Under the pieces are notes generated by a model. The model ran no database searches and was not told the origin of the DNA. It was given only the letters and a program-made list of their open reading frames with translations. A program made the translations under genes and the position numbers. Below, piece after piece: positions 6,755 to 49,655 of a stretch of DNA of 64,000 nt. Every line of letters starts with the position of its first letter. Position 1 is the first letter of the stretch. This stretch comes from Smithella sp. PtaU1.Bin162 (GTDB lineage Bacteria; Desulfobacterota; Syntrophia; Syntrophales; Smithellaceae): assembly GCA_002068015.1 (NCBI GenBank), contig MVRV01000029.1, forward strand, positions 114,426-178,425, in the 5' to 3' direction.

Positions 6755-6912
6755 ACCTTCCCCCTGTGTTTTATTATTTATTATTTTTTCTTTATATATA
6801 TAAAACTAGTATTAGTAATATATGCCTGTTTATATGTTGATTAAATATATTTTTGTAATAATTTCAGTATTATATTTTATATATAACTGTGGAGAACGAA
6901 TATATTAAAACT
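6755..6912. other. candidate oriC / DNA-unwinding region in the dnaA-dnaN spacer
   Basis: 158-bp spacer that is overwhelmingly A/T. It has a DnaA-box-like TGTGGAGAA (6888-6896, reverse complement TTCTCCACA, 1 mismatch to TTATCCACA) and TGTTGATTA (6835-6843). A run of NAN triplets TAG-TAT-TAG-TAA-TAT (6807-6821) sits next to a short GCC cluster. Confidence 0.5.
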
Positions 6913-8262
6913 TTAATTATTGTTGGTTAAATTGTTCTCAATTTCCTGAATTAAAAGTTTTAACTTATTATCCGACTCTATTCCTTTTAATATTTTATTA
7001 TTAGCATAAATAACTGTTGAATGATCACGATTTCCTATTTTTTGACCGATGTCAGGAAATGATTGATTGGTTATTTTTCTGGCCAAATACATAGTTATTT
7101 GTCTGGCTAATACCATATTTTTATTCTTATTATGTGATTTTATATCAGATATTTTTATATTTAATTTTCCTGCAACCAGTTTTATAATTTCATCAATACT
7201 TACTTCTCTCTTTTCATTATGTTTTAGTAATTTTCTTAAAACTTCTTTAACAAGATCAAGATTAATTTCTCTTCCTGTAAGAGAAGAATAGGCACATATT
7301 CTTACTAAAAATCCTTCCAGTTCACGGATATTTGATTCTACTTGGGAAGCAATATAATGAGCAACATTACCTGGTAGAGATATTTTATTTTCCTGCATTT
7401 TTTTTTCGATGATGGCTATTTTAGTTTCAATCTCCGGCGGTTGAATATCGGCAATTAATCCCCATTCAAACCTTGATCGTAATCTTCCCTCTAAATTAGG
7501 AATATCTTTTGGAAATTTATCACTGGTAACAACTATTTGCTTTCCTGAATCGTGTAAAGTGTTAAAAGTATGAAAAAATTCTTCCTGTGTACGTTCTTTA
7601 CCCGCCAGAAAATGAATATCATCAATTAATAAACAGCCGATATTTCGGTACCTTTCTCTAAACTTAGGCATCCGGTCGTAACGAATGGAATTGATCATTT
7701 CGTTCATAAATTCCTCAGCTGATAAGTATAATACATGCAAATCCGGATGAGTTGATACCGTCAATAACCCAATGGCATTCAGTAAGTGGGTTTTACCAAG
7801 TCCTGATCCACCGTAGATAAAAAGAGGGTTATAATTTTTTGCCGGTTGCTTGGAGACGGCGATGGAGGCGGCATGGGCAAATTGATTACAAGGACCAACG
7901 ACGAACCTTTCAAAAGTGTAATTACCGTTCAATGGAGATAAATATTTGGTTTTATTATCTATTACAGTTGAACTTTTTGTATGTTCGGATATTTTTTCAG
8001 TAGCTTGGGGCTTTTTTTCCTTCTCTTTGGAAAGTACGAATTCAACGTCAATTTCCAGCCCGACAATATGTTCCAGAGAATGCTTGATTGTAGAGAAATA
8101 ATTATCTAAAAGCCAGTCTTTAAAAAACTTATTGGGAACGGCAAGTTGAACACACCGGTCTTCCAGAGAAACAATCTTAATCGGTTTTATCCAGGTATCA
8201 AAATTTTGTTTACTTAATTTATCTTGAATAATTTTAGTAGTTTTATCCCAGAGAGCTTCCAC
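6913..8262 (-). CDS. dnaA: chromosomal replication initiator DnaA (GTG start)
   Basis: 449 aa with Walker A GGSGLGKTHL, the sensor region, and C-terminal DNA-binding domain motifs (HSTVIYA). The start codon is GTG at 8262. Confidence 0.97.
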   Translation of the reverse strand: MEALWDKTTKIIQDKLSKQNFDTWIKPIKIVSLEDRCVQLAVPNKFFKDWLLDNYFSTIKHSLEHIVGLEIDVEFVLSKEKEKKPQATEKISEHTKSSTVIDNKTKYLSPLNGNYTFERFVVGPCNQFAHAASIAVSKQPAKNYNPLFIYGGSGLGKTHLLNAIGLLTVSTHPDLHVLYLSAEEFMNEMINSIRYDRMPKFRERYRNIGCLLIDDIHFLAGKERTQEEFFHTFNTLHDSGKQIVVTSDKFPKDIPNLEGRLRSRFEWGLIADIQPPEIETKIAIIEKKMQENKISLPGNVAHYIASQVESNIRELEGFLVRICAYSSLTGREINLDLVKEVLRKLLKHNEKREVSIDEIIKLVAGKLNIKISDIKSHNKNKNMVLARQITMYLARKITNQSFPDIGQKIGNRDHSTVIYANNKILKGIESDNKLKLLIQEIENNLTNNN

Positions 8263-33751: not shown

Positions 33752-33873
33752 GGCCTCAAAATATTAAGATAATACCGAATAGTCAACACAAAATATCGTT
33801 AATACCGGCTGCATAATTAGGGCGTGCAATTTCTCCGGGAAATGTGTTATTTTATTTCCCGAAGGAGGTGACT

Positions 33874-34347
33874 ATGGCCGACAAATCCAAACTTGGTTAT
33901 GAATTTCCCGTCCGTATCCTGGCAGTGGAAAAAGGCAAAATTGCCGAATTTGCCATGGCCGTTTCCCAAAAGGATTCTCCGGAAAAATTGAACCCCATTT
34001 ATGCCGATGCCGGGGCGGCCAAGAAAGCCGGTTATCCGGGTATCGTTATTCCGCCGACTTTTCCGACCTGCCTTATGTTCTGGACTCAAGGCGGGCTGAT
34101 GGGAGTCGTCAACAGTCTGGGAATCAACCTGGGCCGACTTTTGCACGGGGAAGAAGAATACGAATATTTCGGCAGTGTGTGTGCGGATGATGTTCTTACC
34201 GGAAAGATGAGAGTTGCGGATATGTACGATAAGGAGAAGAAGGACAAACCCGGCAAGTTCATGAAATTTACCGTGCTGGAAACGGAAATGCGCAATCAAC
34301 GGGGGGAGCTGGTGCTTAAAGCCCGCTCAACGTTGCTAGAAAGATAG
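33874..34347 (+). CDS. MaoC-like (hot-dog) dehydratase, N-terminal-type subunit
   Basis: The ATG at 33874 follows GAAGGAGG. It is a hot-dog fold sequence paired with the downstream MaoC subunit, a HadA/HadB-like arrangement. Confidence 0.8.
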   Translation: MADKSKLGYEFPVRILAVEKGKIAEFAMAVSQKDSPEKLNPIYADAGAAKKAGYPGIVIPPTFPTCLMFWTQGGLMGVVNSLGINLGRLLHGEEEYEYFGSVCADDVLTGKMRVADMYDKEKKDKPGKFMKFTVLETEMRNQRGELVLKARSTLLER

Positions 34348-34357
34348 GAGGATATTT

Positions 34358-34807
34358 ATGACCGTGAAATTTGCCGACGTTAAAACCGGAGACGCCTTGC
34401 CTCCCTACACGACCCTTCCTCTTACCCGGACTGATCTTGTCCGTTATGCCGGAGCTTCCGGTGATTTCAATCCCCTGCATCATGACAATACTTTTGTAAA
34501 TGTTTTCGGCATGGAACGAGTCATTGCCCACGGCATGCTGATTATGGGTATTGCCGGTGAGGCTATTACCGCCTGGATAGAAAACAAGAACCTGCGGAAA
34601 TTCAATGTCCGCTTTGCCGGGATGACGGAGCCGGCCGATTTCAACGACCTGGAAGGGACCAGCAAACGGGCGACGATTACCGTTACCGGCCGGGTAACCG
34701 AAAAATTTGAAGAAAACGGCGAGAAGAAAATCCGCTGCGAAATTATAGCGAAAGATGCTTTAGACAGCGTCAAGCTTACGGGATTTTTCATCGCCGCACT
34801 GTCGTAA
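34358..34807 (+). CDS. MaoC-domain (R)-specific enoyl-CoA hydratase/dehydratase subunit
   Basis: 149 aa with the hydratase motif YAGASGDFNPLHHD...IAHGM. Confidence 0.85.
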   Translation: MTVKFADVKTGDALPPYTTLPLTRTDLVRYAGASGDFNPLHHDNTFVNVFGMERVIAHGMLIMGIAGEAITAWIENKNLRKFNVRFAGMTEPADFNDLEGTSKRATITVTGRVTEKFEENGEKKIRCEIIAKDALDSVKLTGFFIAALS

Positions 34808-34986: not shown

Positions 34987-37107
34987 ATGCCGGTTTCTAC
35001 TAAAGATAATACCGTTCCGGGTAAAAATTCCGCCGCTTCATCTCTGCCTGTTCCGTTTCGTGCGCTTCCGGCATGGCTGATGCGCCGTTCCACTATCGTT
35101 GCGCTGGCTTTTGGTTTATTTTTTCTGCTGGTTTTTATTTTTCTTTATTTAGCAGCAAGGCATCTGGAAACAGCTAAAAACAATGCCTTCAAGACAGATG
35201 CAGTGTCAATAAATCTTATCTCCGGTTTAATTACCAATCATGAAAACGCAGTCCGCGAATTTTTGCTCTCTTATGCTTGGCGGACCGGTTTCGTTCAGGC
35301 AGTGAAAAAGAAAGATCCGGAAAAACTAAGCCCTTATTTCAAAGAAATGAAAAAAAATCCGTATGTGGACGGGCTGTTTATAGCTGATAAAGATGGTATC
35401 CTGTGGTTTAACGAACCCTGCTTTCCGGAATCCATCGGGCGGAACTTTTCTTATCGCGACTGGTTTAAAGGAGTTCGTGGACAATGGCAACCTTATGTAT
35501 CTGCTGTTTTTCAGCGGATTGTCGGGGAGAAATCACTGGCGATCGTCAACGCCGTTCCCGTATTCGATGAGCAAGGCAAGCCCATAGGCATTCTCGGCAA
35601 TTCCCATAATCTGCTGTTTATAAATGATATAATTGCTCCGGTTCCGTTGAGTGCTGCAGCCAGAGTGGATATCGTCGACCGTGCCGGACAGATTGTATAC
35701 AGCAATCACATAATTTATAAGGAGGCAGGAACGTTTTATCCGGCGTTGCCGCTCATCGGAAAAGCCCTTCACGAAAAACGGATACAATTGACCATTGACG
35801 ATCAAAAGAATTACTGGGCGCGGAAGTATGTTTCGATCGCATCTGTCGATATTATAGGCGGAGCGGTTATCGTCGAGAGAACCTTAAAGAATATTCTGCA
35901 GGAAGAATTAATTCATTTGTCGGATTTGGCGATTGTTTTATTTCTGTTTTTTTTAGTTGTTGTTTTACTCCTCTTTTTTCTGCGGCATAATTTTATTCTG
36001 CAGGGAGCAGAAAGTAGCTTGCAGGCCGAAACAAGATTACGGGCAAGTGAAGTCAAGTTTAAAGATATGTTTGAGAGCTCCATGGTGGGCAAGTCCATTA
36101 CCAGCCCGGACGGTCGGATTAACGTCAATTCCGCCCTGTGCGAATTACTGGGCTATTCACGGGACGAACTCAATCGACTGCAATGGCAGGATATTACGCA
36201 TCCCGATGATATCGCCTTGACGGCGAAAGCGCTGGAACCTTTATATTCAGGCGCAGCCGATGCAACGCGGCTGATCAAACGTTACCGGAGAAAGGATGGC
36301 GGGGTTATTTGGGCGGATGTCGGCATTACGGTCCGAAGGGACAAGGAAGGCAAACCCGTTTATTTTATGACCAATATGATGGATATAACCGATCGCCGGT
36401 TGCTGGAAGAAAAATCCATCCGGAAAAGCAAGATGTTACAGGCTATCAATAATATTTTTTACGCAACTATGATGGCGGAGACGGAAGCGGCGGTTGCCCA
36501 AAGCTGTCTTGCCGAGGCCGTGGAACTCACGGGCAGCCGCTTCGGTTTTATCGGTAAAGTTATGCCCGATGGTCTTTTTTCGACGATTGCACTCAGCGAT
36601 CCGGGAGGGAAAGATTGCCGTATTGCCGAAGGTGTAGCCGTGAAAATGATAGATAATATGTCGATACGCGGGATCTGGGGGGATGTGATTCTCCGGGAGC
36701 AGGCGTTGATCATCAATGATCCCCCGGCCTATCCGGGCGACGTCGGCCTGCCGCCGGGTCACCCGCCGCTGATTTCGTTTTTGGGTGCACCTCTGAAAGA
36801 TAAAGGGCGGACGATCGGTATGATTGCCGTGGCCAACAGTTCACCCGGTTACACGGAAGTTCACAGGCAGCAATTGGAAGCACTGTGCGTTGCTTTTGTG
36901 GAAGCCATCCGCCGCAAACAGGCGGAAGAAGCGGTGCAGAGAGCCAATGCCGAGCTGGAGGAGCGGATAGCTCAGAGAACAAAGGAATTGGCTGATAAAA
37001 ATGAGGAATTGCTGAGACTCAATAATGTCTTTGTGGGCAGGGAGCTGCGCATGCGGGAACTGAAGGCGAAGATTGCCGAACGCGAAGGAGCAAAAGAGCA
37101 GGAATGA
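34987..37107 (+). CDS. membrane sensor protein: Cache-like periplasmic domain, TM, PAS, GAF, C-terminal coiled coil; no kinase or other known output
   Basis: 706 aa. There are two TM segments flanking a domain of about 270 aa with Cache-like features, then a PAS S-box, a GAF-like region, and the terminal helix ...RTKELADKNEELLRLNNVFVGRELRMRELKAKIAE. Confidence 0.85.
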   Translation: MPVSTKDNTVPGKNSAASSLPVPFRALPAWLMRRSTIVALAFGLFFLLVFIFLYLAARHLETAKNNAFKTDAVSINLISGLITNHENAVREFLLSYAWRTGFVQAVKKKDPEKLSPYFKEMKKNPYVDGLFIADKDGILWFNEPCFPESIGRNFSYRDWFKGVRGQWQPYVSAVFQRIVGEKSLAIVNAVPVFDEQGKPIGILGNSHNLLFINDIIAPVPLSAAARVDIVDRAGQIVYSNHIIYKEAGTFYPALPLIGKALHEKRIQLTIDDQKNYWARKYVSIASVDIIGGAVIVERTLKNILQEELIHLSDLAIVLFLFFLVVVLLLFFLRHNFILQGAESSLQAETRLRASEVKFKDMFESSMVGKSITSPDGRINVNSALCELLGYSRDELNRLQWQDITHPDDIALTAKALEPLYSGAADATRLIKRYRRKDGGVIWADVGITVRRDKEGKPVYFMTNMMDITDRRLLEEKSIRKSKMLQAINNIFYATMMAETEAAVAQSCLAEAVELTGSRFGFIGKVMPDGLFSTIALSDPGGKDCRIAEGVAVKMIDNMSIRGIWGDVILREQALIINDPPAYPGDVGLPPGHPPLISFLGAPLKDKGRTIGMIAVANSSPGYTEVHRQQLEALCVAFVEAIRRKQAEEAVQRANAELEERIAQRTKELADKNEELLRLNNVFVGRELRMRELKAKIAEREGAKEQE

Positions 37108-37123
37108 ATTTCAGGAGAAGGTC

Positions 37124-38179
37124 ATGAAAAGGGTTTTAATTGTCGATGATAATGACGATAATCTTTATTTTCTGCGCGTGTTGCTGGAAGGACATGCCTA
37201 TGAAGTGGATGAGGCGCATAACGGCAGCGAAGCTCTGGTGAAAGTGCTGACGAATATACCGCTCATGATCATATCGGATATCCTGATGCCGGTTATCGAC
37301 GGCTTTACCCTCTGCAAGATTTTGAAAGCGGATGATCGGTTGAAAAATATCCCTTTCATATTCTATACGGCAACATATACCGACCCCAGGGATGAAAGGC
37401 TTGCTCTGGATATCGGCGCGGATGCTTTCATCTGCAAACCGGCGCAAGCGGAAAATTTTCTCGGACAGATGGAAAAGGTATTGGCCGAATACGAGAAAGG
37501 AAAGCTGCCCGTTGTTCGACAAACGGCGGTCGGAGAGACGATGGTGTTGAAGGAGTACAATGAAGCATTGATTCGTAAACTCGAAGAAAAGATGCAGGCG
37601 CTGGAGGCACAAATTGTTTTGAGAAAAAAAGCGGAAGACTCCCGGAAGGAAAGTGAGGAACAGTATCGCTTTTTGTTTGAAAACAGCATGGATGGAATTT
37701 TGCTTACCGAGCCTTCCGGCAAAATACTGCAGGCCAACCCGGCCGCCTGCCGTATGTTGGACAGGACTGAAGAAGAAATATGCCGGGCAGGCCGCAACGG
37801 TATTCTGGCTGCCGACGATCCACGATTGCCCGCAGCGCTTGCCAAACGAGCCCGGACCGGAAAATTCTTCGGCGAGCTGACCATGATCCGCAAGGACGGC
37901 ACAAGATTTCCTGTGGAGCTGTCCACAGCAGTCTTTACGGCTAAAGACGGGCACCTGCAAACCAGCATGATAGTTCGCGATATTACAGAACGCAAGCTGG
38001 CGGAAGAAAGCATCAACAAACTCAATTGCGAGTTGGAACAAAGAGTGCAGGAAAGGACTGTCGAATTGCAGCAGACAATAGCCCGACTGGAGGAACTGAA
38101 CCGGGTGTTCGTTGGCCGGGAACTGAAGATGGCGGAACTGAAAAAAAGAATAGCTGAACTGGACAAAGGTGAAGGATGA
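37124..38179 (+). CDS. response regulator: receiver, PAS, C-terminal coiled coil (no DNA-binding or enzymatic output)
   Basis: The ATG at 37124 follows CAGGAGAAGG. It has a receiver (VLIVDDN...SDILMPVIDG...KP) and a PAS S-box, and ends ...RTVELQQTIARLEELNRVFVGRELKMAELKKRIAEL. Confidence 0.85.
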   Translation: MKRVLIVDDNDDNLYFLRVLLEGHAYEVDEAHNGSEALVKVLTNIPLMIISDILMPVIDGFTLCKILKADDRLKNIPFIFYTATYTDPRDERLALDIGADAFICKPAQAENFLGQMEKVLAEYEKGKLPVVRQTAVGETMVLKEYNEALIRKLEEKMQALEAQIVLRKKAEDSRKESEEQYRFLFENSMDGILLTEPSGKILQANPAACRMLDRTEEEICRAGRNGILAADDPRLPAALAKRARTGKFFGELTMIRKDGTRFPVELSTAVFTAKDGHLQTSMIVRDITERKLAEESINKLNCELEQRVQERTVELQQTIARLEELNRVFVGRELKMAELKKRIAELDKGEG

Positions 38180-38255
38180 AAATGTCGTTGCGAAGAGACG
38201 AAGCGCAAAACAATTTTTCCGGCGGTAATAGAGACAGAATGCGGAAAGAAACCAT

Positions 38256-40511
38256 ATGAACGGATTGGATATACGGACGATATTTTTTTGCGCTTTATTA
38301 ACCGGTATCATTTGCACGGGGGTAATTGTAATCCTTTGGCGGCAGAACCATGAGCGGTTTAATGGAATAGGCTTGTTGGTTTTAGGTTACGCCTTGCAGA
38401 CTTTGGGATTATTGCTGATGACATTACGAGGCGCCTTACCGGAATGGGCATCCATTTTGATGGCCAGTGCACTGATCGTTACCGGGACGCTTTTTATATA
38501 TAAGTCCCTGGAACGGTTTACAGCATTAAACGGTATGCAAATTCATAACGTTATTCTTGTTTTGTTTTTTATCGGAACCACCGTATATTTTACCTATTTG
38601 AAACCGGATTTGACGGCCAGGATCATCAGTGTTTCCCTGACCATGTTGATTCTTTGGGCACAATGCGCCTGGCTCCTGCTGGTCCGTGTTACTCCACACC
38701 AACGCACGTGGACCCGAGCCGTCGGTCTGGTTTTTTCCGGTTTCTGTCTGCTGACGGTGATCCGTTTTATTAAGTATGCCGTATTCGGAGGTAATGAATA
38801 CGATTTTTTTCAGACCCGTATCTTTGATGCCCTGATTATTATTTCCTATCTGATGTTGTTTATTCTTCAGACGTTTCTTTTGACTTTAGTAGTTAATAAG
38901 CGACTTTTGCTGGAGGTAGGAACAACGGAAGAAAAATTCTCCCGGGCGTTTTATTTATCGCCTTATGCCGCCGCACTTGTCAGTATGGAGGAAGGGCGCA
39001 TTACGGAAGCCAATAAAAAATTCCTGGATGCTATTGATTATAAAGAGGAAGAGGTAATCGGGGCAACGGTGATGGACCTGCATCTATGGGAGAGGCAAGA
39101 AGATCGTCTGGCCGTTTTTCATGAATTGTCCGAGATGGGCGGTATTTCCGGGCGGGAATACAAATTCCGGAAAAAGACAGGAGAAATTCTAACCGGTGTT
39201 TTTTCGGCGGCAGTCATCTCTGTTGAAGGCGTAAAGTATTTCTTGTCCACCATCGATGATGTTACAAAAACAATGCGGATACAGGAAGATTTGAAAAAAT
39301 CAGAAAAGTTTCTGCAAAGTATAATCGAACAAAGCCCTTATCCGATGTGGATTGCCGATAAGGGTGGGACGCTTATTCAGATAAATCAAGCCTGCCTGAA
39401 GACGTTTAATCTGGTTGAGGAGGAAGTGCTGGGTAAATATAATATCTTGCAGGATAATATTGTTGCCGAACAGGGGTTCATGCCTTTGGTGAAGGAAGTA
39501 TTGGAAAAGGGATCGACCGCCCGGTTCGATCTTCATTATGATACTTCTCGCTTAAAAAGTCTGCAACTGCAAAAAAGGTCGATTCTCGTTGTCGATACGA
39601 CAATTTTTCCGGTTAAGGATCAACACGGCAACATCACTAATGCCGTTATTCAATTTATTGACATTACTGCCCGTAGGAAGATGGAGGATGCAAATAAGCT
39701 ATTGCACACGGAGCTTCAGCAAAAAGTCGAAGATCGAACCAGAGCATTGCATGATACCCAATTGGCGTTATTGAATCTGGTTGATGATTTGGAACAGACG
39801 GCAAAAAATCTGGCTGATTCCAATAATCAACTGTCGTCAGCCAATAAGGAGCTGACGGCGTTCAGCTATTCGGTATCGCACGATTTGCGTGCTCCTCTGC
39901 GGAGTATGGAAGGATTCAGCCAGGCTTTACTCGAAGATTATTCCGATAAGCTGGATGATCATGGCCAGGATTATCTTAAAAGGATTTGTAATGGCGCAAA
40001 AAAGATGAATGGACTGATCAGCGATTTATTAAAACTTGCCCGGGTCAATCAAGCCGATATCATCCTGCAGGAAGTAAATCTAAGCGCAATCGCGGAAGAA
40101 ATTATACGGGAAAAGCGGATGAACGATTCCGGAGACAATCGAATAGTAACCATTCGGGACAATATAATCGTCAAAGGCGACAGCAATTTACTGAAAATCG
40201 CACTAACCAATCTGCTGGATAATGCCTGGAAATTTACAAGCCTTTCCGCCCAGCCGCAAATTGAATTGGGTGTAAAAAATGAAGCGGGGCAAAGAGTCTT
40301 TTTTGTCAGGGACAATGGTGTAGGCTTCGACATGGAACAGTCGGGCAGGCTTTTCGGCGTATTCCAGCGTATGCACAAGGATGATGATTTTCCGGGAACG
40401 GGAATAGGGTTGGCGACCGTGCAGAGGATTATTCACCGTTCCGGGGGACAAATCTGGGCGGAGGCGGAAGTGGGAAGGGGTGCAACATTTTTTTTTACAC
40501 TGCCCGTATGA
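38256..40511 (+). CDS. 7-TM sensor histidine kinase (7 TM helices, 2 PAS, HisKA, HATPase_c)
   Basis: 751 aa with seven hydrophobic helices in the first ~215 aa, the H-box SYSVSHDLRAPL, and N/G boxes (LLDNAWKF, DNGVGF, GTGIGL). Confidence 0.9.
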   Translation: MNGLDIRTIFFCALLTGIICTGVIVILWRQNHERFNGIGLLVLGYALQTLGLLLMTLRGALPEWASILMASALIVTGTLFIYKSLERFTALNGMQIHNVILVLFFIGTTVYFTYLKPDLTARIISVSLTMLILWAQCAWLLLVRVTPHQRTWTRAVGLVFSGFCLLTVIRFIKYAVFGGNEYDFFQTRIFDALIIISYLMLFILQTFLLTLVVNKRLLLEVGTTEEKFSRAFYLSPYAAALVSMEEGRITEANKKFLDAIDYKEEEVIGATVMDLHLWERQEDRLAVFHELSEMGGISGREYKFRKKTGEILTGVFSAAVISVEGVKYFLSTIDDVTKTMRIQEDLKKSEKFLQSIIEQSPYPMWIADKGGTLIQINQACLKTFNLVEEEVLGKYNILQDNIVAEQGFMPLVKEVLEKGSTARFDLHYDTSRLKSLQLQKRSILVVDTTIFPVKDQHGNITNAVIQFIDITARRKMEDANKLLHTELQQKVEDRTRALHDTQLALLNLVDDLEQTAKNLADSNNQLSSANKELTAFSYSVSHDLRAPLRSMEGFSQALLEDYSDKLDDHGQDYLKRICNGAKKMNGLISDLLKLARVNQADIILQEVNLSAIAEEIIREKRMNDSGDNRIVTIRDNIIVKGDSNLLKIALTNLLDNAWKFTSLSAQPQIELGVKNEAGQRVFFVRDNGVGFDMEQSGRLFGVFQRMHKDDDFPGTGIGLATVQRIIHRSGGQIWAEAEVGRGATFFFTLPV

Positions 40512-40939: not shown

Positions 40940-41593
40940 ATGAAAGCTGAAAAGGAAAACAGTAATGAAGATAATGCCTTTTGCCGGAATATCTGCGGCA
41001 AAAGCATGAAATTGCTCATCGGCAATCTTATTGCTGAAGGTGTGCCCAAAGAAAAGCTGGTCCGTGCGTTGAAAAAGACCGATCCGGAACTGGAAACAAT
41101 TGTTGCAGCCATTCATGAGGAATGCAGGCGCAGTAGGCGAAAAGAAGATCAACATAAAACCTTCGAAGCAATGCGAAAAGATTATCTGACGAGAATTCTT
41201 ATTTACTATCTTAAAGAAAGCGATTCCATTGCCCATGCCGTTTATTTTCCCCGGCAATCATTCAAGATATTTGCCGATGCTGTCCGGAAACTGCTTGGGG
41301 AAAACATTCTGGAAGAGAAACAGCTCCAGTGTTATGTTGTTGTCAAGGACCACCAGGACGAAAGCGGCCGCATAAACTGGGACAAAATCTATGTGGATGA
41401 CCGGGCAAAACAGATTGCCTGGGATGTGCTTTTCCGCATCAGCATGGCTATGGCAGGATTGAGCGGCGAATGGTTCAAGGAATATATTGCCGATTATGCG
41501 AAAACTCACGGTGATTTTTACGGAGAGGGTATGGCGCATTATGTCCAGGAAAGGCTGGAGGGCATTGCCAAAACGTTCCGGCTGGATCGCTGA
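40940..41593 (+). CDS. hypothetical protein
   Basis: 217-aa ORF with ordinary composition and no motif I recognise. The start is uncertain (40940 or 41006). It is co-oriented with the downstream signalling genes. Confidence 0.5.
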   Translation: MKAEKENSNEDNAFCRNICGKSMKLLIGNLIAEGVPKEKLVRALKKTDPELETIVAAIHEECRRSRRKEDQHKTFEAMRKDYLTRILIYYLKESDSIAHAVYFPRQSFKIFADAVRKLLGENILEEKQLQCYVVVKDHQDESGRINWDKIYVDDRAKQIAWDVLFRISMAMAGLSGEWFKEYIADYAKTHGDFYGEGMAHYVQERLEGIAKTFRLDR

Positions 41594-41677: not shown

Positions 41678-42067
41678 ATGAGCGAACCGGTACGAATTCT
41701 TATTATTGATGATGAAGAATCATTTACATTCTTTGTGAAATTGAATCTGGAAACAGACCCGCGTTTTGCAGTTGTTACAGCCAACCGCGGAGAAGAAGGA
41801 TTGAAACTTGCGAAATCCATGAAACCGGATTTGATTCTCCTCGATATAATGATGCCCGGCATGTTCGGAACGGAGGTGGCCCAGAGTCTGCTCGCTGATG
41901 ATCATACTAAAGATATTCCCGTCATTTTTCTTTCTGCTGCCATCAGAAAAGAACAGGCTGAAAAAGATGGTGGTATGATCGGCGGACGGGATTTGATAGT
42001 CAAACCGGTTACGAAAGAGGAATTGACGAGCCGGATCGAAACGGCTCTGCGCTTGAAAAAGAAATAA
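41678..42067 (+). CDS. single-domain CheY-like response regulator (paralog 1)
   Basis: 129 aa with ILIIDDE, DLILLDIMMPGMFG and VKP motifs. Confidence 0.9.
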   Translation: MSEPVRILIIDDEESFTFFVKLNLETDPRFAVVTANRGEEGLKLAKSMKPDLILLDIMMPGMFGTEVAQSLLADDHTKDIPVIFLSAAIRKEQAEKDGGMIGGRDLIVKPVTKEELTSRIETALRLKKK

Positions 42068-42116
42068 AAAAATATCAGATCAGGTGTTACGCGCGGTAAG
42101 TATTGCAGGAGGTAAT

Positions 42117-45100
42117 ATGGGCAAGCTGCTTCGGGTATTGGTTGTTGAAGATTCGGAAGATGATTTTTTATTATTGCTGCGCGTTTTGAAAAAGGGCGGG
42201 TATGATGTCCAGGCTTGCCGTGTGGACACTGCCGGCGCTTTGTCCGATGCAATTCGGGAGAAAAAATGGGATGTTTTGCTTTGCGATTACAAGATGCCGA
42301 CATTCAGTGGACGCGCCGCTATAACTCTTCTGCATGAAAAGAATCTAGATATTCCCTGCATCATTGTTTCCGGCGCCATCGGTGAAGAAACGGCCGTGGA
42401 ATGCATGCGCCTGGGCGCGCATGACTATGTTATGAAGGGCAACCTTTCCTGTCTTGTTCCGGCTATAGAAAGAGAGATCGCAGAAGCAAAAACCAGAGAG
42501 GAAAAACGGCGCACCGAAGAAACTCTCAAAAAAAGCGAAGAGAAATTCAGGTTTCTGGCCGAAAATATGGCCGATATCTTATGGTCGGCCGGTCTTGATT
42601 TGCGCACAACCTATGTTACCCCATCGGTAAAAAAATTGCTGGGATTTACCCCGGAAGAAAGGGTTTTACAGACACTAGAACAACAGCTGACACCGGATTC
42701 ATTGGCCCGGGCGCTGGATACTTTATCCCGGGAACTCGCAGTCGAAAATCAAGGCGATCAAGACCCGCAAAGAACAGCGGAACTGGAGCTGGAATTCTAT
42801 CATAAAGACGGATCCACCCGTTGGTTGGATGTCATTGCAAAAGGGACGAGAAACGAGGAGGGTGTTTTAACAGGCATTCAAGCTGTGGCCAGAGATGTCA
42901 CTGCACGCAGATTTGCAGAAGAGGCACTCAGAGAAAGCGAAGCCCGTTTCCGCACGCTTGCTGATTCCGGGCAGGCATTGATCTGGACTTCGGATGTAGA
43001 TAAGAAATGCAATTACTTTAATCAGACCTGGCTTAATTTTACCGGCCGGACCATGGAGCAGGAACTGGGTGACGGCTGGGCCGAAGGGGTGCATCCCGAT
43101 GATCTGGAAAGATGCCTGAAACTCTATACCACTGCTTTTGACCGCCGGGAAAGTTTCAGTATGACCTACCGGTTAAGGCGTTACAACGGAGAGTATCGCT
43201 GGATTCAGGATGACGGAACTCCGCGGTACAACTCCAAAGGAGAGTTCATAGGATATATCGGCCATTGCCTGGATGTTACGGAGCGTATACTGACCGAGGA
43301 ATCGCTCCGCATGAGCGAATTCCGTTATAAAGAAATGTTCGAAAACATGAGTACTTGTGTGGCTGTATATGAATCAGCAAACAACGGAGAAGACTTTGTT
43401 ATCAGACATTTCAACCGGGCGGCGGAAAAAGCGGAAAAAATCGACAGACGAAAACTTATCGGCAAATCAATACTCAAGGTGTTTCCCGGAGCCGCGGAGA
43501 TGGGTATCGTTGAAGTTTTGCAAAGAGTGTGGAAAAGCGGACAGGCGGAACATGTTCCTGCATCATTCTACCGGGATGGACGCATTTCCGGATGGCGGGA
43601 AAACTATATTTACAAGCTGCCCACCGGGGAAATTGTAGCATTATATAATGATATTACCGAGCGTAAAAAAGCGGAAATAAGAATATTTGAAAGTGAAGAA
43701 AAATACCGCCTGCTCGTGGAAAACAGCAGCGAAGCAATTTTTATAACCCAGAATAATATGCTGCAGTTCGTCAACCGGGCGTCATTGACATTGTTCGATA
43801 CTGCTTATGAGGTTTTGATTTCGACTCCCTTTATGGAATTTATTCATCCGGAAGATCGTGAAAAAGTGATCTCATTGCATTTAAGCAGACTTAAAGGGGA
43901 AAAAGTATCTCCCAATCATACTTTCCGAATTGTTACAAAAGAAGGGATTGTTAAATGGGTGGAAATGCATTCCAGCCTTGTCTCCTGGCAGGGGAAACCA
44001 GCCACCCTGGATTTCTTGAGTGATGTTACCAAACGCGCGCAGGCGGAAAAAGCAGTCCGTGATATCAGTGCAATACAAAACCTTATTCTGGAAAACAGTT
44101 CTCTGGGAATTGTCTTCGTTCGCAACCGTATTTTTGAATGGGTAAATAAACGCTTCGCCGAGATATTAAAGATGCCCATCGAAAAAGTGCAGGGTACCAC
44201 CGCGCGCATTATGTATCCTTCCGACGAAGCTTATGAAGAAGTGGCCAATACGGCTTACCGGGATCTGGCTGAAGGGAAACGTGCAGATCGTGTCTTTCAG
44301 CTTGTCCGTGGTGATGGAAATTCTTTCTGGTGCCGTTTCTTAGGCAAAGCCCTGAATCCGGCCAAGCCTCATGATGGTTCCATCTGGATGTTTGAGGATA
44401 TTACCGAACGCAGACAGATGGAGGAGGCGCTGCAGGAAGCTCAAAAGCAATTGCAGGATGCCTATCATCTGGCCAAGATAGGAAGCTGGATTTGGAACTG
44501 CAATAAAAAGACAGTAACCTGGTCGGATGAGATCAGTTCTATGGCTGGTCTGGACAAACAATCAATGGTTTTTCCTGATAATAAACATCCTCGCATTTAT
44601 ACGCAGGAAAGCTGGGATCTTCTGAAAGAGGCGGTTGTGGTTTCTCTCTCCACAAGCCGCCAGCAACAGCTGGAACTGGAGGTCGTGCAACCGGACGGTA
44701 ATCATCGCTGGGTTAACTGGATATGCAACGTAATGCGGGATAAAAAAGGCAAGATTATCGGTTTGCACGGTACGATCCAGGATATCACCGACCGCAGACA
44801 GGCGGAAGAAGCAGTGCGGGAAAGCGAAGAGCGCTTCAGAAAACTGTTTGAAAATCACTCGGCAGTCAAACTTCTGATTGATGCCGATACGGGAAAAATT
44901 GTCGATGCCAATAACGCGGCCGTAAAATTTTACGGCTGGCCGAAGAATCAGCTTCTCCAAATGAGGATAAGTGATATCAATATACTTCCTGTCGGGCAGA
45001 TAAAAGAAGCCATAGAAAAAGTCAAAAATGAAAAAAGGGTTCAGTTTGAATTTCAGCACCGGCTGGCCGACGGTTCCATCCGGGATGTGGAAGTGTTCAG

Positions 45101-46319
45101 CAGCTGTATAGAAATAAAAGGGAAAACAATGCTCCATTCCGTGATTCATGATATTACCGAACGCAAAAAGACGGAAGAACTCCTGAAGATAAGTGAAAAA
45201 AAGTACCGTAATATATTTGAAAATGCCATGGAAGGGATTTTTCAAAGTACTGTCGATGGGCGGTATATAAGCCTTAATCCCGCTTTTGCCCGAATCAGGG
45301 GTTATGATTCGCCGGACGAGATGATTCGCATGACCGGTGATGTTCAGCGGCAGACTTACGTTCATATTGAAGAGCGGACCAGAATGATCGAAATACTCGA
45401 TCAACAGGGATTTGTTAATAATTTTGAAATTGAGGCCAAACGCAAGGATGGCAGCAAAATCTGGGTGTCCATGAACGCGATACCCGTCCGTGACGAAAAC
45501 GGTAAAATCATCATGATTGAAGGTACTATCATGGACATTACCGAACGTAAAAAAATGCATTTGGAATTACAGAAAAAGAATCTGGAATTGGCCCGGGCTT
45601 ATGAGGAACTGAAAGCCCGGCAGGATATGATTATCGATCGGGAAAAGATGGCATCAATCGGGATGCTCTCCGCCGGAGTTGCCCACGAAATCAAAAATCC
45701 CCTGGCGATTATGCTGCAGGGGATCAACTATCTGCAGTCGCCGGCCAGAGACGATTCCATGCAGCAGGAAGTGCTCGCAAGGCTCTACGATGCGGTGCGC
45801 AGGGCAGACGTAATTGTCAAGGGATTACTTAGTTACGCCCGTCAGACCCCGCTTTCTTTACGAGCATATAACATTCGGAAATTGATTGATGACTGCCTGG
45901 CGCTTACGGAACATGAATTGCACAAAAAAAATATTCGTATCGTCAAAAATTATTGGCTGGATTTGCCCGATGTTATTGTCGACATGAACCAGATTCAACA
46001 GGTGTGCATTAATTTGATTATTAACGCTATAGAGGCAATGTCCAAAGACGGTGTATTGACCATCAGCGCCAAACGAATTACGGATAATGCCGGCAAAGAA
46101 TTTCTCGAAATCACGGTTTCCGACACGGGGCATGGAATTCCTGCAGATAAACTTGTGAAAATATTCGATCCGTTTTATACTACTAAAACTATCGGAAGCA
46201 CGGGGCTCGGTCTTTCCATTTCCCGGGGAATTATCGAGAAGCATGGCGGAACACTTAAGGCGGAAAGTGAAGAAGGGCATGGTGCCAGCATGATCTTTAC
46301 ACTGCCTGTAACATTATAA
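42117..46319 (+). CDS. giant signalling protein: N-terminal receiver, about 8 PAS domains, HisKA, HATPase_c
   Basis: The ATG at 42117 follows GCAGGAGG. It has a receiver (VLVVEDSEDD...LCDYKMPTFSG), eight S-box-type PAS units each ending in DITERK-like linkers, the H-box AGVAHEIKNPL, and G-boxes (DTGHGI, GLGLSI). Confidence 0.92.
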   Translation: MGKLLRVLVVEDSEDDFLLLLRVLKKGGYDVQACRVDTAGALSDAIREKKWDVLLCDYKMPTFSGRAAITLLHEKNLDIPCIIVSGAIGEETAVECMRLGAHDYVMKGNLSCLVPAIEREIAEAKTREEKRRTEETLKKSEEKFRFLAENMADILWSAGLDLRTTYVTPSVKKLLGFTPEERVLQTLEQQLTPDSLARALDTLSRELAVENQGDQDPQRTAELELEFYHKDGSTRWLDVIAKGTRNEEGVLTGIQAVARDVTARRFAEEALRESEARFRTLADSGQALIWTSDVDKKCNYFNQTWLNFTGRTMEQELGDGWAEGVHPDDLERCLKLYTTAFDRRESFSMTYRLRRYNGEYRWIQDDGTPRYNSKGEFIGYIGHCLDVTERILTEESLRMSEFRYKEMFENMSTCVAVYESANNGEDFVIRHFNRAAEKAEKIDRRKLIGKSILKVFPGAAEMGIVEVLQRVWKSGQAEHVPASFYRDGRISGWRENYIYKLPTGEIVALYNDITERKKAEIRIFESEEKYRLLVENSSEAIFITQNNMLQFVNRASLTLFDTAYEVLISTPFMEFIHPEDREKVISLHLSRLKGEKVSPNHTFRIVTKEGIVKWVEMHSSLVSWQGKPATLDFLSDVTKRAQAEKAVRDISAIQNLILENSSLGIVFVRNRIFEWVNKRFAEILKMPIEKVQGTTARIMYPSDEAYEEVANTAYRDLAEGKRADRVFQLVRGDGNSFWCRFLGKALNPAKPHDGSIWMFEDITERRQMEEALQEAQKQLQDAYHLAKIGSWIWNCNKKTVTWSDEISSMAGLDKQSMVFPDNKHPRIYTQESWDLLKEAVVVSLSTSRQQQLELEVVQPDGNHRWVNWICNVMRDKKGKIIGLHGTIQDITDRRQAEEAVRESEERFRKLFENHSAVKLLIDADTGKIVDANNAAVKFYGWPKNQLLQMRISDINILPVGQIKEAIEKVKNEKRVQFEFQHRLADGSIRDVEVFSSCIEIKGKTMLHSVIHDITERKKTEELLKISEKKYRNIFENAMEGIFQSTVDGRYISLNPAFARIRGYDSPDEMIRMTGDVQRQTYVHIEERTRMIEILDQQGFVNNFEIEAKRKDGSKIWVSMNAIPVRDENGKIIMIEGTIMDITERKKMHLELQKKNLELARAYEELKARQDMIIDREKMASIGMLSAGVAHEIKNPLAIMLQGINYLQSPARDDSMQQEVLARLYDAVRRADVIVKGLLSYARQTPLSLRAYNIRKLIDDCLALTEHELHKKNIRIVKNYWLDLPDVIVDMNQIQQVCINLIINAIEAMSKDGVLTISAKRITDNAGKEFLEITVSDTGHGIPADKLVKIFDPFYTTKTIGSTGLGLSISRGIIEKHGGTLKAESEEGHGASMIFTLPVTL

Positions 46320-46337
46320 TGTCAAGGAGGGTGGATT

Positions 46338-46730
46338 GTGGGAAAACCTATCAATATCCTGGCTGTAGATGACGAAGAATCATTTACCTTTTTTGTAAAG
46401 CTGAATCTGCAAAATGATTCACGCTATGAATTCAACGTCACAACGGCCAACGGCGGAGAAGCAGGATTGAAACTGGCCAGGAAAATCAAACCGGATTTGA
46501 TTCTGCTTGACATAATGATGCCCGATATGAGCGGCACGGAGGTTGCCGAAAAGCTCCTGGAAGATCCCCGTACAAAAAGTATTCCCATCATTTTCATGAC
46601 TGCTGTAGTGCAAAAAGATGAAGTTGCGGAAGAAGGTGGCATCATGGGCGGTCGCGAATTTATCGCCAAACCGGTCGAAAAGGACGAGCTCATCGATCGG
46701 ATTGCCGCAACCCTGAATTTGCCGCGCTAG
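46338..46730 (+). CDS. single-domain CheY-like response regulator (paralog 2, GTG start)
   Basis: 130 aa, roughly 60% identical by eye to 41678-42067, with a shared DDEESFTFFVKLNL and KPDLILLDIMMP. RBS AAGGAGGG lies upstream. Confidence 0.9.
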   Translation: MGKPINILAVDDEESFTFFVKLNLQNDSRYEFNVTTANGGEAGLKLARKIKPDLILLDIMMPDMSGTEVAEKLLEDPRTKSIPIIFMTAVVQKDEVAEEGGIMGGREFIAKPVEKDELIDRIAATLNLPR

Positions 46731-46864
46731 TTTGCTGTTGACCGCAGCCGCAACTCCAGGAGGAATTTTCGGGCAATTTTAACCGCCGAGCGATGACATT
46801 TGCCTGGTCAGATTCCCGTTGACGAATATCTTTACTCAAGATAGAAATAATACCAGGTGTTTTT

Positions 46865-48214
46865 ATGCAATCCCGTATTCTGGTTATAGATGATGATGCC
46901 GTTGCCTGCGAGTTTCTGCAGGAGGCACTCTCCCGTGAAGGTTATGACGTAGTCACTTATACCTCTGCCCTGGAAGCGCTGGGGCAGGATCTCTCCCGCT
47001 ATGATTTGCTGATGTCTGATATCCGGATGCCCGGTATGGACGGGTTGCAGCTGCTGGGAGAGGTGCAGAAAAATTGGCCGAATCTGCCGGTAATTCTCAT
47101 GACCGCCTACGGATCGCTCGAAACCACAATGGAAGCGATCAGCCTTGGTGCCTGGGATTACATCAGCAAGCCGTTTTCTCCGGATGACTGCCGGGCGATC
47201 GTTAAAAAAGTGCTGGAAGTGCGGGAATTGCGGGAAAAACGCCTGAATCTGCAGCCGGAAGAGTCGGCAGGTCCGAAATTCATCGGTTCTTCGGCGACGA
47301 TGGTTGATTTTTATAAGCAGATTGCCCGGGTCGCGGATTCGCCGGCCAGTGTATTGATTGAAGGCGAAAGCGGTACCGGCAAGGAGCTCACCGCCCGCTC
47401 TCTGCACAACATGTCTTCCCGCCGTACCAAACAGTTTGTCGTTGTCCATTGCGGTGCCATTCCCGACAACCTTCTGGAATCAGAATTATTTGGTTATGAA
47501 AAGGGCTCGTTTACCGGAGCCGACCATCAGCATATCGGCCTTTTGGAGTCGGCGCAGGGCGGCACAATTTTTCTGGATGAAATCACCGAGATGTCCACCG
47601 CTCTGCAGGGGAAATTGCTGCGGTTCATGCAAAACGGCGAAGTGCGAAGAATCGGCGGCCATGAAGTAAGGTATGTCGCCGTAAGAGTGCTGGCGGCGGC
47701 CAATAAAAATATTGATGAGGAAGTGCGGCAAAACCGTTTCCGCCTGGATCTGCTCTACCGCTTTATCGTGCGGCTGCGTATTCCGTCGCTGCGCGAACAT
47801 AAGGAAGACATACCGCTTTTGATCGAAGCCATGCTGAAAAAATTCGGTTACCCCGGTGTGCGTATTTCCGTTGAAGCCATGGAACTTTTGATGGCCTACG
47901 AATGGCCCGGAAATGTCCGGGAATTGGAAAACATCTTGCAGCAGACACTGCTTCTTTCGCCTTTTGTAGTAATTTTACCGGAAAATCTGCCGCAGCGTTT
48001 TCAGCGGCAACAGGAGAGCAGAGAAAACGGCGGCCTCATGGACATGACTCCTCTGGAGGAAGCGGAAAAGAACAAGATACTGCAAATCCTGCAGGAAACT
48101 TCCTGGAACCAATCCAAAGCAGCGCAGATTTTGGGTATTGACCGCAAAACCCTGCGCCTGAAAATAAGACGTTATGGACTGCTTGATGGAAAAATACCCG
48201 GCATTAATCTTTAA
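46865..48214 (+). CDS. NtrC-family sigma-54-dependent response regulator
   Basis: 449 aa with a receiver (ILVIDDD...SDIRMPGMDG), AAA+ ([23 protein letters not shown]) and a Fis-type HTH (KAAQILGIDRKTLRLKI). Confidence 0.93.
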   Translation: MQSRILVIDDDAVACEFLQEALSREGYDVVTYTSALEALGQDLSRYDLLMSDIRMPGMDGLQLLGEVQKNWPNLPVILMTAYGSLETTMEAISLGAWDYISKPFSPDDCRAIVKKVLEVRELREKRLNLQPEESAGPKFIGSSATMVDFYKQIARVADSPASVLIEGESGTGKELTARSLHNMSSRRTKQFVVVHCGAIPDNLLESELFGYEKGSFTGADHQHIGLLESAQGGTIFLDEITEMSTALQGKLLRFMQNGEVRRIGGHEVRYVAVRVLAAANKNIDEEVRQNRFRLDLLYRFIVRLRIPSLREHKEDIPLLIEAMLKKFGYPGVRISVEAMELLMAYEWPGNVRELENILQQTLLLSPFVVILPENLPQRFQRQQESRENGGLMDMTPLEEAEKNKILQILQETSWNQSKAAQILGIDRKTLRLKIRRYGLLDGKIPGINL

Positions 48215-49655
48215 TGCCGGCAATATCTTTGGCCAGTTTCTTTTTCTGTTCCAGATTTCCCTGCCGGGCGATCATGATCCGCTGCGCCTGAGGCGAACCT
48301 GCGCCGTGCATGGATTCCGTGCGGTATCCGACAGCGGCCGTGCCCAGGGTAATATTTTCGATAAGACGCATAATCCGGCAGCGGTGTTCCGTGGACACCG
48401 AAGCCACACCCCGGAAATATTTCTTCACAACAGGGCCTATTTCCGGATGACGCAAATCACGCTCTGAAGCCAGTGTTACCATCAAACCTCCGGCGAGATC
48501 TTCCGCGAGCCTCGCGATTTCATAGGGCAGCCGGGTGACGTTCTGCTTACAGACGTTCGCAAGCAACAGGTTGATCAGATAAGTTCCGGAAGCGGTTTTA
48601 TTTCCTTCCGCCGAGCAGGCAATCCCGCAGGCGTAAAGTGTTTCATTGAGATGCATCATTTCAATCAGTTTGTCTTTAACATGGGAGGCTTTAGCCGCGC
48701 CGTTGTAATCGGCGGCGAGAGCCGCCGCACCGATGAGTACATCTCCTACGCCGACTTTGCAGCCGCCGTAGCTCTGGCGGTGATAGCCGGCAAAACGTTC
48801 CACCAAAAGACCACTGAATTCGTACTCGCCGCACATGAATACATTCTCCCAGGGCACAAATACATTGTCGAAAACCATCAGGGCTTCGTGACCGCCGAAG
48901 TTGTAATTGCCGACATCAATATTCCCGCCTTCCAGTTTCCGCGTATCACAGGATTGGCGTCCGTAGATATAGGAAATACCTTCCGCATCGGCCGGAGCAA
49001 CAAAAGAAAGAGCATAGTCGCTGTCTTCTTTAGTCATGGCGATAGTCGGCATTACTAAAATCCAGTGGGAGTTGATCGCTCCCGTTTGATGGGCTTTGGC
49101 GCCCCGGACGACAATGCCGTCTTTCCTTCTTTCCACGATGTGGGTAAATAAGTCGGGATCGGCCTGGCGGCTGGGGGGCAGGCCGCGGTCTCCTTTGGGA
49201 TCGGTCATGGCGCCGTCTACGGTCATGTCTTCATCCTGCATACGGCGCAAAAACTTCAGGAATCTTTCATGATAGGAAGTGCCTAGTTTCTTATCCATTT
49301 CAAAGGTGACACTGTCCACGGCATTGACGGCATCCATCCCGACGCAGCGCTGGAAACAGGCCCCGGTTTTCTGTCCCAAAAGCCGCTGCATCTTGACTTT
49401 TTTGACCAGATCCGTTGTGCTTTGATGCAGATGGCAAAAACGATTGATTTTTTGTCCCGTAAGATGCGATGTCGCCGTCATCAAATCTTCATGCTCCGGG
49501 TCGTGGGCAAGTGCATAAGTCATTTTTACCGAATTCATGGAGGGACGGATAATGGGATGATCCACCGGATTAACAATCCTCTCACCCATCAAATAGACTT
49601 TAAGCTTTAATTTACGTAAACTTTCTTCATACTGGGCGGCGGTTTGAAGTGCCAT
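48204..49655 (-). CDS. abfD: 4-hydroxybutyryl-CoA dehydratase / vinylacetyl-CoA delta-isomerase
   Basis: 483 aa, collinear with my recollection of Clostridium aminobutyricum AbfD. Matching segments include KVKMQRLLGQKTGACFQRCVGMD, FAGYHRQSYGGCKVGVGD and MHGAGSPQAQRIMI. The [4Fe-4S] ligand context C..C / H..C is present. Confidence 0.9.
   Translation of the reverse strand: MALQTAAQYEESLRKLKLKVYLMGERIVNPVDHPIIRPSMNSVKMTYALAHDPEHEDLMTATSHLTGQKINRFCHLHQSTTDLVKKVKMQRLLGQKTGACFQRCVGMDAVNAVDSVTFEMDKKLGTSYHERFLKFLRRMQDEDMTVDGAMTDPKGDRGLPPSRQADPDLFTHIVERRKDGIVVRGAKAHQTGAINSHWILVMPTIAMTKEDSDYALSFVAPADAEGISYIYGRQSCDTRKLEGGNIDVGNYNFGGHEALMVFDNVFVPWENVFMCGEYEFSGLLVERFAGYHRQSYGGCKVGVGDVLIGAAALAADYNGAAKASHVKDKLIEMMHLNETLYACGIACSAEGNKTASGTYLINLLLANVCKQNVTRLPYEIARLAEDLAGGLMVTLASERDLRHPEIGPVVKKYFRGVASVSTEHRCRIMRLIENITLGTAAVGYRTESMHGAGSPQAQRIMIARQGNLEQKKKLAKDIAGIKD

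Follow-up and report, generated by a model that had tools for sequence, protein, structure and literature searches.

A terminal coiled coil of output-less sensory proteins and its association with a stalk motif in neighbouring histidine kinases

A locus of Smithella sp. PtaU1.Bin162 (GenBank assembly GCA_002068015.1, contig MVRV01000029.1) raises the question of how a sensory protein passes on its signal when it carries no output domain. The window, that is, the whole stretch of DNA that was analysed (64,000 nucleotides, positions 114,426 to 178,425 of the forward strand of the contig), contains three adjoining plus-strand genes corresponding to OPY88715-OPY88717, the first product being identical to OPY88715.1; their database names are generic or wrong (YegE, TmoS, Cph1). 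P1 (34987-37107, 706 residues) is composed of a dCache domain flanked by two strongly hydrophobic, transmembrane segments, a PAS domain, a GAF domain and a C-terminal helix, P2 (37124-38179, 351 residues) of a receiver (REC) domain, a PAS domain and a helix of the same kind, and the third product (38256-40511, 751 residues) is a histidine kinase. The original prediction, made from the letters of this stretch, held that neither P1 nor P2 has a recognizable output, and indeed searches of both proteins against Pfam and NCBIfam revealed no output domain at E <= 0.1. The shared helix, hereafter the tail, is very probably an output or docking module that is functionally tied to one class of histidine kinases, recognized by a short motif in the stalk, to which the adjoining kinase belongs.

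The shared tail and its family

The C-termini of P1 and P2 align without gaps at 31 of 56 identical residues (BLASTP E = 9e-14), as had been noticed originally, and the tail motif has just two occurrences when the window is translated in all six frames. At the DNA level the two stretches are 57% identical, with differing codons at 17 of the 31 identical residues and a longest common run of 10 nt. The likeness is therefore kept by selection on the protein and does not stem from a recent DNA duplication, in agreement with the earlier reading.

The tail consists of two halves, a proximal signaling helix (S-helix) with its ERT signature and a distal extension of about 25 residues. In P1, the translation and the column conservation place the S-helix core LEERIAQRTKEL at 36955-36990, where it carries a QRT variant of the signature, and the distal terminal motif LNNVFVGRELRMRELKAKIAE, of the RMRELKA sub-type, at 37018-37080, followed by eight variable residues and the stop. 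In P2, the S-helix core LEQRVQERTVEL (38033-38068) has the ERT signature itself, and the distal motif LNRVFVGRELKMAELKKRIAEL (38096-38161) is followed by five residues and the stop; the whole proximal half of P2, ELEQRVQERTVEL, is a typical signaling helix with E-R-T at heptad positions c, d and e. Among 98 aligned tails the Arg of the signature is conserved in 100%, the Thr in 99% and the Glu in 69%. The consensus of the distal half is LN-[RK]-[VL]-F-V-[GD]-R-E-L-[KR]-M-x-E-L-K-x-[RK]-I-x-E-L-E. Across 100 tails the hydrophobic a/d columns run unbroken over 43 residues (a = V, L, L, F, M, I; d = L, R, K, L, R, L, L), and G-R-E occupies positions c, d and e, its invariant Arg, which is R685 in P1 and R332 in P2, falling at d exactly 21 residues, or three heptads, after the Arg of E-R-T. 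In the tail, then, the S-helix continues into a second polar-core heptad and two ordinary heptads, at the end of which the chain stops. AlphaFold2 models it as a single continuous helix (residues 2-76) with a predicted local distance difference test (pLDDT) score of 94 and no hairpin.

The distal half is better conserved than the S-helix in a 100-sequence alignment (A3) that was selected by a regular expression requiring FVGRE; later searches with hidden Markov models (HMMs) also retrieve FVDRE, FTGRE and more distant forms. All matches of the tail to known families and structures lie on the S-helix half (PDB 6k4e and 8w26; NCBIfam NosR, SiaA, NahK and TorS), and the distal half alone has no match in Pfam, NCBIfam or PDB. 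The literature searched held nothing relevant on the motif strings or on output-less S-helix proteins. NCBIfam NF053512 (NosR, REC-HD-GYP) matches 97 of the 100 tails, and a split-peptide test showed that the S-helix half alone is responsible, so this family was dismissed as an identity for the tail.

When 1.84 billion representative proteins were searched with the tail profile, 21,524 clusters reached E <= 1e-3, of which 2,086 also reached E <= 1e-10. Of the 150 best matches, 147 ended within about 20 residues of the C-terminus, the three exceptions being two S-helix-repeat proteins and one apparent read-through. A scan of one genome per species gave 272 relatives, and 70 loci were retrieved from Smithellaceae, Syntrophaceae, Geobacterales, Desulfuromonadales, Desulfobulbia, Nitrospirota, Treponema, anaerobic methanotrophic (ANME) archaea of the ANME-2 group and Methanosarcinales archaea. 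The family spans Desulfobacterota, Nitrospirota, Spirochaetes and ANME archaea. In the 70 loci plus the window the stop lies <=29 residues after the module in 159 of 160 HMM-defined tails, and with a looser pattern 231 of 232 occurrences fall within 45 residues of the protein end. It had been suggested that the tail might turn out to be a generic S-helix without a conserved terminal position; the proximal half is a genuine S-helix, but both the distal half and the terminal position are conserved.

Fused to the tail in 91 full-length proteins are PAS (71), REC (27), GAF (18) and 5TMR-LYT (11) domains, and further SBP_bac_3, HAMP, PocR, Cache and MASE3; no kinase, cyclase, phosphodiesterase, helix-turn-helix or AAA+ domain occurs among them. 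The search for the motif at protein C-termini and the tabulation of its domain partners, both proposed at the outset, thus return a terminal module joined to input domains only. Such input-only partners are the profile expected of an output module, and the tail fills the slot of an output domain. Homology searches with short tail queries gave mostly short fragments, the Vitreoscilla-type tail introduced below gave no match, and the Geobacter-type tail had no tblastn match in plasmids. We also observed periplasmic Phosphonate-bd (PF12974) proteins of about 300 residues interleaved with tail genes in six loci of Nitrospirota and Geobacter (L039, L044, L049, L052, L063 and L068), and the same domain is fused to some tail proteins; both arrangements offer hints at the kind of ligand that is sensed.

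Several other identities for the tail were tried and set aside. For a bZIP-like DNA-binding role only weak generic coiled-coil matches were obtained, and the zipper is not preceded by a basic region. A C-terminal degradation or secretion tag does not suit a motif that is followed by 5-25 variable residues and hence is not at the extreme terminus. Mimicry of the start of a sigma-54 AAA+ domain (VGRELRMxELKxxI against IGxSxxMxxLxxxI) finds no Pfam match at E <= 10 for 100 tails; the motif HMM matches 0 of the 11 AAA+ activators in the loci, and no Walker A follows the motif.

The original prediction had likened FVGRELRM to the start of an H-box in a truncated HisKA domain. The tail would then be a pseudo-DHp, a shortened first HisKA helix with its His changed to Arg, which pairs with the DHp of the kinase as RetS does with GacS. 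The segment ELERMNRLFVG---RELRMVEL can be aligned by eye to ELDRLKSMFIASMSHELRTPL with a gap of three residues, and the length of the tail past the Arg resembles that of DHp helix 1 past the His. Alignments by eye to FIASMSHELRTPL are feasible as well, and several mutually exclusive ones are equally good, as is usual for coiled-coil sequence. Profile comparison gives a different picture: none of 164 real H-box regions of the same loci received a positive score from an unfiltered HMM of the motif alone, a comparison of the motif with an alignment of 142 DHp sequences by hhalign gave a probability of 0.7%, and Pfam HisKA was unmatched by 100 tails even at E <= 10. Neither tail contains a His or is joined to a HATPase, the proteins end 5-25 residues after the helix, and the predicted structure has one helix only, with no second DHp helix to form a hairpin. 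In addition, the kinase element that co-varies with the tail is the stalk motif described below, and the H-box is of two types among the partner kinases. The assignment to an H-box is accordingly not supported, and the pseudo-DHp reading as a whole is very unlikely.

We give practically no weight to the idea that P1 and P2 are truncated or frameshifted kinase remnants or products of mis-assembly. The gaps from P1 to P2 and from P2 to the kinase gene measure 16 nt and 76 nt, respectively, which leaves no space for a frameshifted kinase remnant, and the same stop position is kept in hundreds of independent assemblies from several phyla, so the original view that these are intact genes was correct. 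A JGI contig (Ga0228535_1000732, locus L071) is identical to the window contig, and identical proteins are present in NCBI.

The stalk motif and its pairing with tail genes

The product of 38256-40511 is a bona fide sensor histidine kinase, as had been predicted, with HisKA (E = 2.2e-13) and HATPase_c (E = 2.3e-21) matches in Pfam. It is composed of seven hydrophobic segments, two PAS domains, an S-helix, the stalk motif and the catalytic core, and is non-hybrid, that is, without a receiver domain. The genuine H-box FSYSVSHDLRAPLR lies at 39861-39902, with His542 encoded at 39879-39881. The kinase S-helix ELQQKVEDRTRAL (39711-39749), in which T495 and L498 do not vary among 57 related kinases, is directly followed by the motif TQLALLNLVDDLEQ (39756-39797), about 30 residues upstream of the H-box, which we propose as the partner of the tail. 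The consensus of this ALLNLVDDL element is SQ-x-A-L-[LM]-N-[LIV]-V-[DE]-D-L-N. A504, L505, V509, D511 and L512 are invariant in the 57 motif-bearing kinases, an invariance equal to that of the catalytic His and the G-boxes, and the sensors of these kinases are varied (5TMR-LYT, PocR, GAF, Cache, CHASE, MASE3, VUPS).

The association between tail and stalk motif was found from both sides. In loci ascertained by the tail, the ALLNxV[DE]DL motif is present in 32 of 42 kinases encoded immediately downstream of tail genes versus 4 of 39 others (Fisher p = 1.4e-9), and is found in 0 of 160 tail proteins and 0 of 204 other open reading frames (ORFs). In the reverse scan, metagenome contigs were searched by the kinase motif alone, which gave 54 kinases with upstream sequence; a same-strand tail gene lies directly upstream in 39 of these, two genes upstream in 4 and elsewhere in the locus in 2, and 9 have none. 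Both motifs are rare, with 335 raw matches to the tail pattern and 469 to the kinase pattern (both short and degenerate), so chance adjacency is negligible. The gap between tail gene and kinase gene has a median of 41.5 nt, and many pairs overlap by 1-4 nt.

Two strongly diverged proteobacterial pairs retain both motifs and the gene order. On plasmid pVF1 of Vitreoscilla filiformis, a PAS protein ending in ...MLDREDRILELKGEVNVLLARLGEPSRY (tail core MLDREDRILELKGEVNVL) is encoded by a gene that overlaps by 4 nt the gene of a PocR-PAS hybrid kinase containing GALSMMEDQRRA (GALSMMEDQ). In Aeromonas caviae KAM479, a 729-residue Cache/PAS protein ends in ...FNKVMVDRELAMLALKHQINGLSRRLGVPPPY (tail core VMVDRELAMLALKHQINGL), its gene overlaps that of a 1323-residue hybrid kinase containing LAALNLMDDAISAR (AALNLMDDA), and a REC-HD-GYP gene lies upstream. 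In both kinases the motif stands between PAS domains and does not adjoin the DHp, which is evidence that the motif itself, and not its distance from the H-box, is linked to the tail.

A still more divergent C-terminal form, [GD]RE-[ED]-R-[VI]-x-ELK-x-EVN-x-L...G-x-P-x-Y, with no clear ERT heptad, was seen in ANME archaea and in Beta- and Gammaproteobacteria (L032:4175-5722, L103:3659-4855, L149:5843-7150 and L150:3976-6165), and the family is therefore wider than the VFVGRE pattern. Three proteins were considered as fusions of the two motifs. P0012 and P0016 proved to be S-helix repeats only; the 808-residue P0009 combines a terminal tail with an internal kinase-type ALLSIVEDE motif (RRALLSIVEDEKRA) that is preceded by an S-helix, and both motifs can thus occur within one chain.

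The reading that we prefer, with a probability of about one half, is that a terminal coiled coil of about 60 residues is the sole "output" of these proteins and docks on the kinase stalk, wiring the sensors to the kinase. Direct binding of the tail to the kinase is what we infer from the pairing described above. The original prediction had suggested heteromerisation with the adjacent kinase; the two-way neighbourhood association strengthens that idea, but not the DHp contact that came with it, and any contact site is likely to be the stalk rather than the DHp.

Several observations weigh against stalk docking. About half of the tail-gene clusters in the tail-ascertained loci lack an adjoining motif-bearing kinase, 28 having no adjacent kinase and 20 adjoining a kinase without the motif. 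The tail consequently cannot act through this kinase class alone, and tails probably have other partners too or act at a distance. Conversely, the nine kinases of the reverse scan have the motif and no tail gene in the available stretch, and the two others have one only elsewhere in the locus. Because many loci are related to one another (Smithellaceae, Geobacteraceae), the counts are higher than the number of independent events, and paired tails and kinases showed no clean covariation of their motif residues, lineage being a confounder. Finally, parallel alignment of the S-helices puts the kinase motif at two offsets, seven residues apart, in two sub-classes of kinase, and a simple in-register heterodimer does not fit both. 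In this parallel register the end of the tail coincides with the start of the H-box region in Smithella-type kinases, a position compatible with packing of the helix along the stalk; kinases of the second sub-class are one heptad longer.

The organization of the tail genes bears on a different explanation. They occur in tandem sets of two to four in 44 of 98 clusters, and two conserved sub-types follow a fixed order, with VFVDRELRMRELKARI in the distal protein and VFVGRELKMAELKKRI in the kinase-proximal one. The tail could then be a zipper that forms homodimers or joins tail paralogues, for instance P1 with P2, the kinase being reached by REC phosphotransfer or by PAS-PAS contacts and its motif being unrelated. 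The tandem sets and ordered sub-types speak for such a zipper, as do the many tail clusters without a nearby motif-bearing kinase and the regular a/d pattern, which suits a dimeric coiled coil. A zipper, however, needs neither an invariant F-x-G-R-E-x-x-M-x-x-L-K that exceeds the S-helix in conservation nor a buried Arg at d. It also leaves unexplained an equally invariant stalk motif in kinases with unrelated sensors, and the joint persistence of both motifs in the diverged proteobacterial pairs. On balance we regard it as unlikely, though deserving of serious attention.

Other products of these loci are candidate partners too. The distal tail proteins are sensors of ligands; REC is present in 4 of 47 of them, in 24 of 72 kinase-proximal ones and in 0 of 72 kinases, and the gene after the kinase carries REC in 44 of 60 loci, often with a REC-PAS-HD-GYP gene next. 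The tail might dock on a single-domain receiver, a REC-PAS-HD-GYP phosphodiesterase, a PF05635 protein or an MCP, with the kinase a mere pathway neighbour. The frequency of REC in the post-kinase gene is consistent with this, and so is the recurrence of HD-GYP regulators and PF05635 proteins after the kinase and of an MCP after REC-PAS-tail genes in five Geobacteraceae loci. Yet the motif-bearing kinase accompanies the tail more constantly than any of these proteins does, and they showed no conserved short motif of the ALLNxVDDL kind. Moreover, the linker of the HD-GYP regulators is unrelated to the tail, and the gene cluster in the window has no HD-GYP or MCP gene. Docking on such a partner is improbable, and docking on the kinase stalk remains the reading that we follow below.

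Two of these neighbours merit description in their own right. The motif-bearing kinase is often followed by a four-helix-bundle protein of 123-131 residues, PF05635 ("23S rRNA intervening sequence"), an odd kinase neighbour that replaces or precedes the receiver (L005:8572-8943, L018:8901-9293 and similar). In the five Geobacteraceae loci (L025, L030, L034, L042 and L050), a hybrid kinase without the stalk motif is followed by a REC-PAS-tail protein of 340-510 residues, next by an MCP and finally by a B12-binding protein together with a URO-D-like one. The tail in this hybrid kinase and MCP context may have a different partner.

Proposed wiring and surrounding genes

In the mechanism that we propose, each tail protein would be a parallel dimer. 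Binding of a ligand at the dCache, PAS or GAF domain of P1, or phosphorylation of P2 at D52, would make the terminal coiled coil pack differently or shift in register. The Arg at d may destabilize the homodimer, as proposed for ERT, and changes in the polar core could gate docking. The altered coiled coil would then govern how the tail associates with the stalk of the kinase, in or close to the ALLNLVDDL heptads, and the DHp, which lies just beneath, would have its balance between kinase and phosphatase activity set by this association. The one kinase (38256-40511) would thereby become the point at which several free-standing sensors meet; it would signal to the receiver encoded at 41678-42067 and, in related loci, also to REC-PAS-HD-GYP phosphodiesterases. 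More tentatively, and with somewhat less conviction than we attach to stalk docking itself, the terminal helix and the stalk motif may be the two halves of a dedicated in-trans coiled-coil connector, by which separate sensor and receiver proteins would join a common histidine kinase and inputs would be integrated through assembly and not through domain fusion.

The receiver of P2 (Pfam Response_reg, E = 8.6e-20) has all catalytic residues in place when read from the sequence (D8/D9, D52, T82 and K104); P2 qualifies by these features as a response-regulator receiver protein, and its phosphorylation is predicted. We speculate that P2 is a phosphorylation-controlled input that receives feedback from the same kinase. 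A ribosome-binding site, AGGAGAAGG, lies 6 nt 5' of its ATG. On the opposite strand, an ORF of 393 residues (37136-38317, minus strand) overlaps the P2 gene and exceeds P2 in length, so that a choice of the longest ORF discards the real P2 gene. The same error probably affects automatic calls of other coiled-coil-rich genes.

The window fits the layout of the related loci exactly, with P1 as a sensor of the RMRELKA sub-type, P2 with REC and the KMAELKK sub-type, the kinase, an ORF of 217 residues and a receiver of 129 residues. The single-domain receiver (41678-42067, plus strand; Pfam REC) is likely the phospho-acceptor of the kinase. The ORF between kinase and receiver (40940-41593, plus strand) is of unknown function and has no Pfam match; its membership in the system is uncertain. 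A homologue with 67% identity occupies the same post-kinase slot in an uncultured Smithella locus (L019:8529-9179).

The same-strand signalling cluster continues over 41678-48214 (plus strand) with the 129-residue REC protein, a 1411-residue REC-multi-PAS-HisKA-HATPase kinase without the stalk motif, a second REC protein of 130 residues and a 449-residue REC-sigma54 AAA+-HTH (helix-turn-helix) activator. Together with P1, P2 and the kinase these genes make up a 13-kb two-component block. MaoC/FAS1-type dehydratase genes (33844-34807) immediately precede the signalling cluster, and an HpaB-family gene (4-hydroxyphenylacetate 3-hydroxylase-like; 48204-49655, minus strand) adjoins its end; both are possible metabolic targets of the regulators. 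Elsewhere in the window, the GC content falls to 0.318 at 6001-8000, compared with about 0.45-0.50 in the remainder.

Significance and comparison with known systems

For thousands of proteins that are misnamed or bear only the annotation "PAS domain S-box protein", the tail would supply a defined output together with a predicted partner. If docking on the stalk is true, one kinase reads several unrelated signals through separate polypeptides. If the in-trans connector is true as well, it would represent an unrecognized and widespread principle of two-component wiring, shared by organisms as far apart as ANME archaea and Aeromonas. Both short motifs can readily be searched for, which makes the partner prediction testable, and some cultured organisms have versions of the system (Aeromonas caviae, Vitreoscilla filiformis and Geobacter sp. 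OR-1). The tail-stalk pair could also serve as a portable connector in engineered sensor-kinase circuits.

Compared with HisKA/DHp (PF00512), the tail is likewise helical, stands after an S-helix and contains an E-L-[RK] triplet, but it has no His, second helix, catalytic domain or detectable profile similarity. A second comparison is with RetS, a full hybrid kinase that uses its DHp and controls GacS by direct helical heteromerisation. The likeness is that a protein which does not itself phosphorylate the output regulator is proposed to modulate a bona fide kinase by helix-helix contact; the tail proteins differ in having neither a DHp nor a catalytic domain, and the conserved kinase segment regarded as the candidate contact precedes the DHp. 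Closer in architecture are PpSB1-LOV, a short LOV/PAS protein with only a C-terminal J-alpha coiled coil, and FrzS, which consists of REC and a coiled coil. In these, as in the tail proteins, a sensor or receiver is followed by a helical extension only, with no enzymatic or DNA-binding output. Helices of the PpSB1-LOV and FrzS type are not known to share a conserved motif across many sensor types and phyla or to have a fixed genomic partner with a matching motif.

As far as the libraries and the literature searched extend, the S-helix half of the tail is known, and no description exists of the extension, its restriction to the C-terminus of input-only proteins, the stalk motif or the way in which extension and stalk motif are paired. 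The S-helix is thus the known element from which the comparison has to start. Its published description is of a helix of about 40 residues with a/d heptad periodicity, places ERT at heptad positions c, d and e of the central heptad and has the helix link two signalling domains (Anantharaman, Balaji, Aravind 2006, PMC1592074). The proximal half of the tail shares with it the ERT, the flanking pattern of L, E and V and the five-heptad periodicity. In the tails, however, no domain follows, only the conserved 25-residue extension and the stop, which contradicts the published rule that the S-helix stands between domains; if docking on the kinase stalk is true, its role reaches beyond that of an intramolecular linker.

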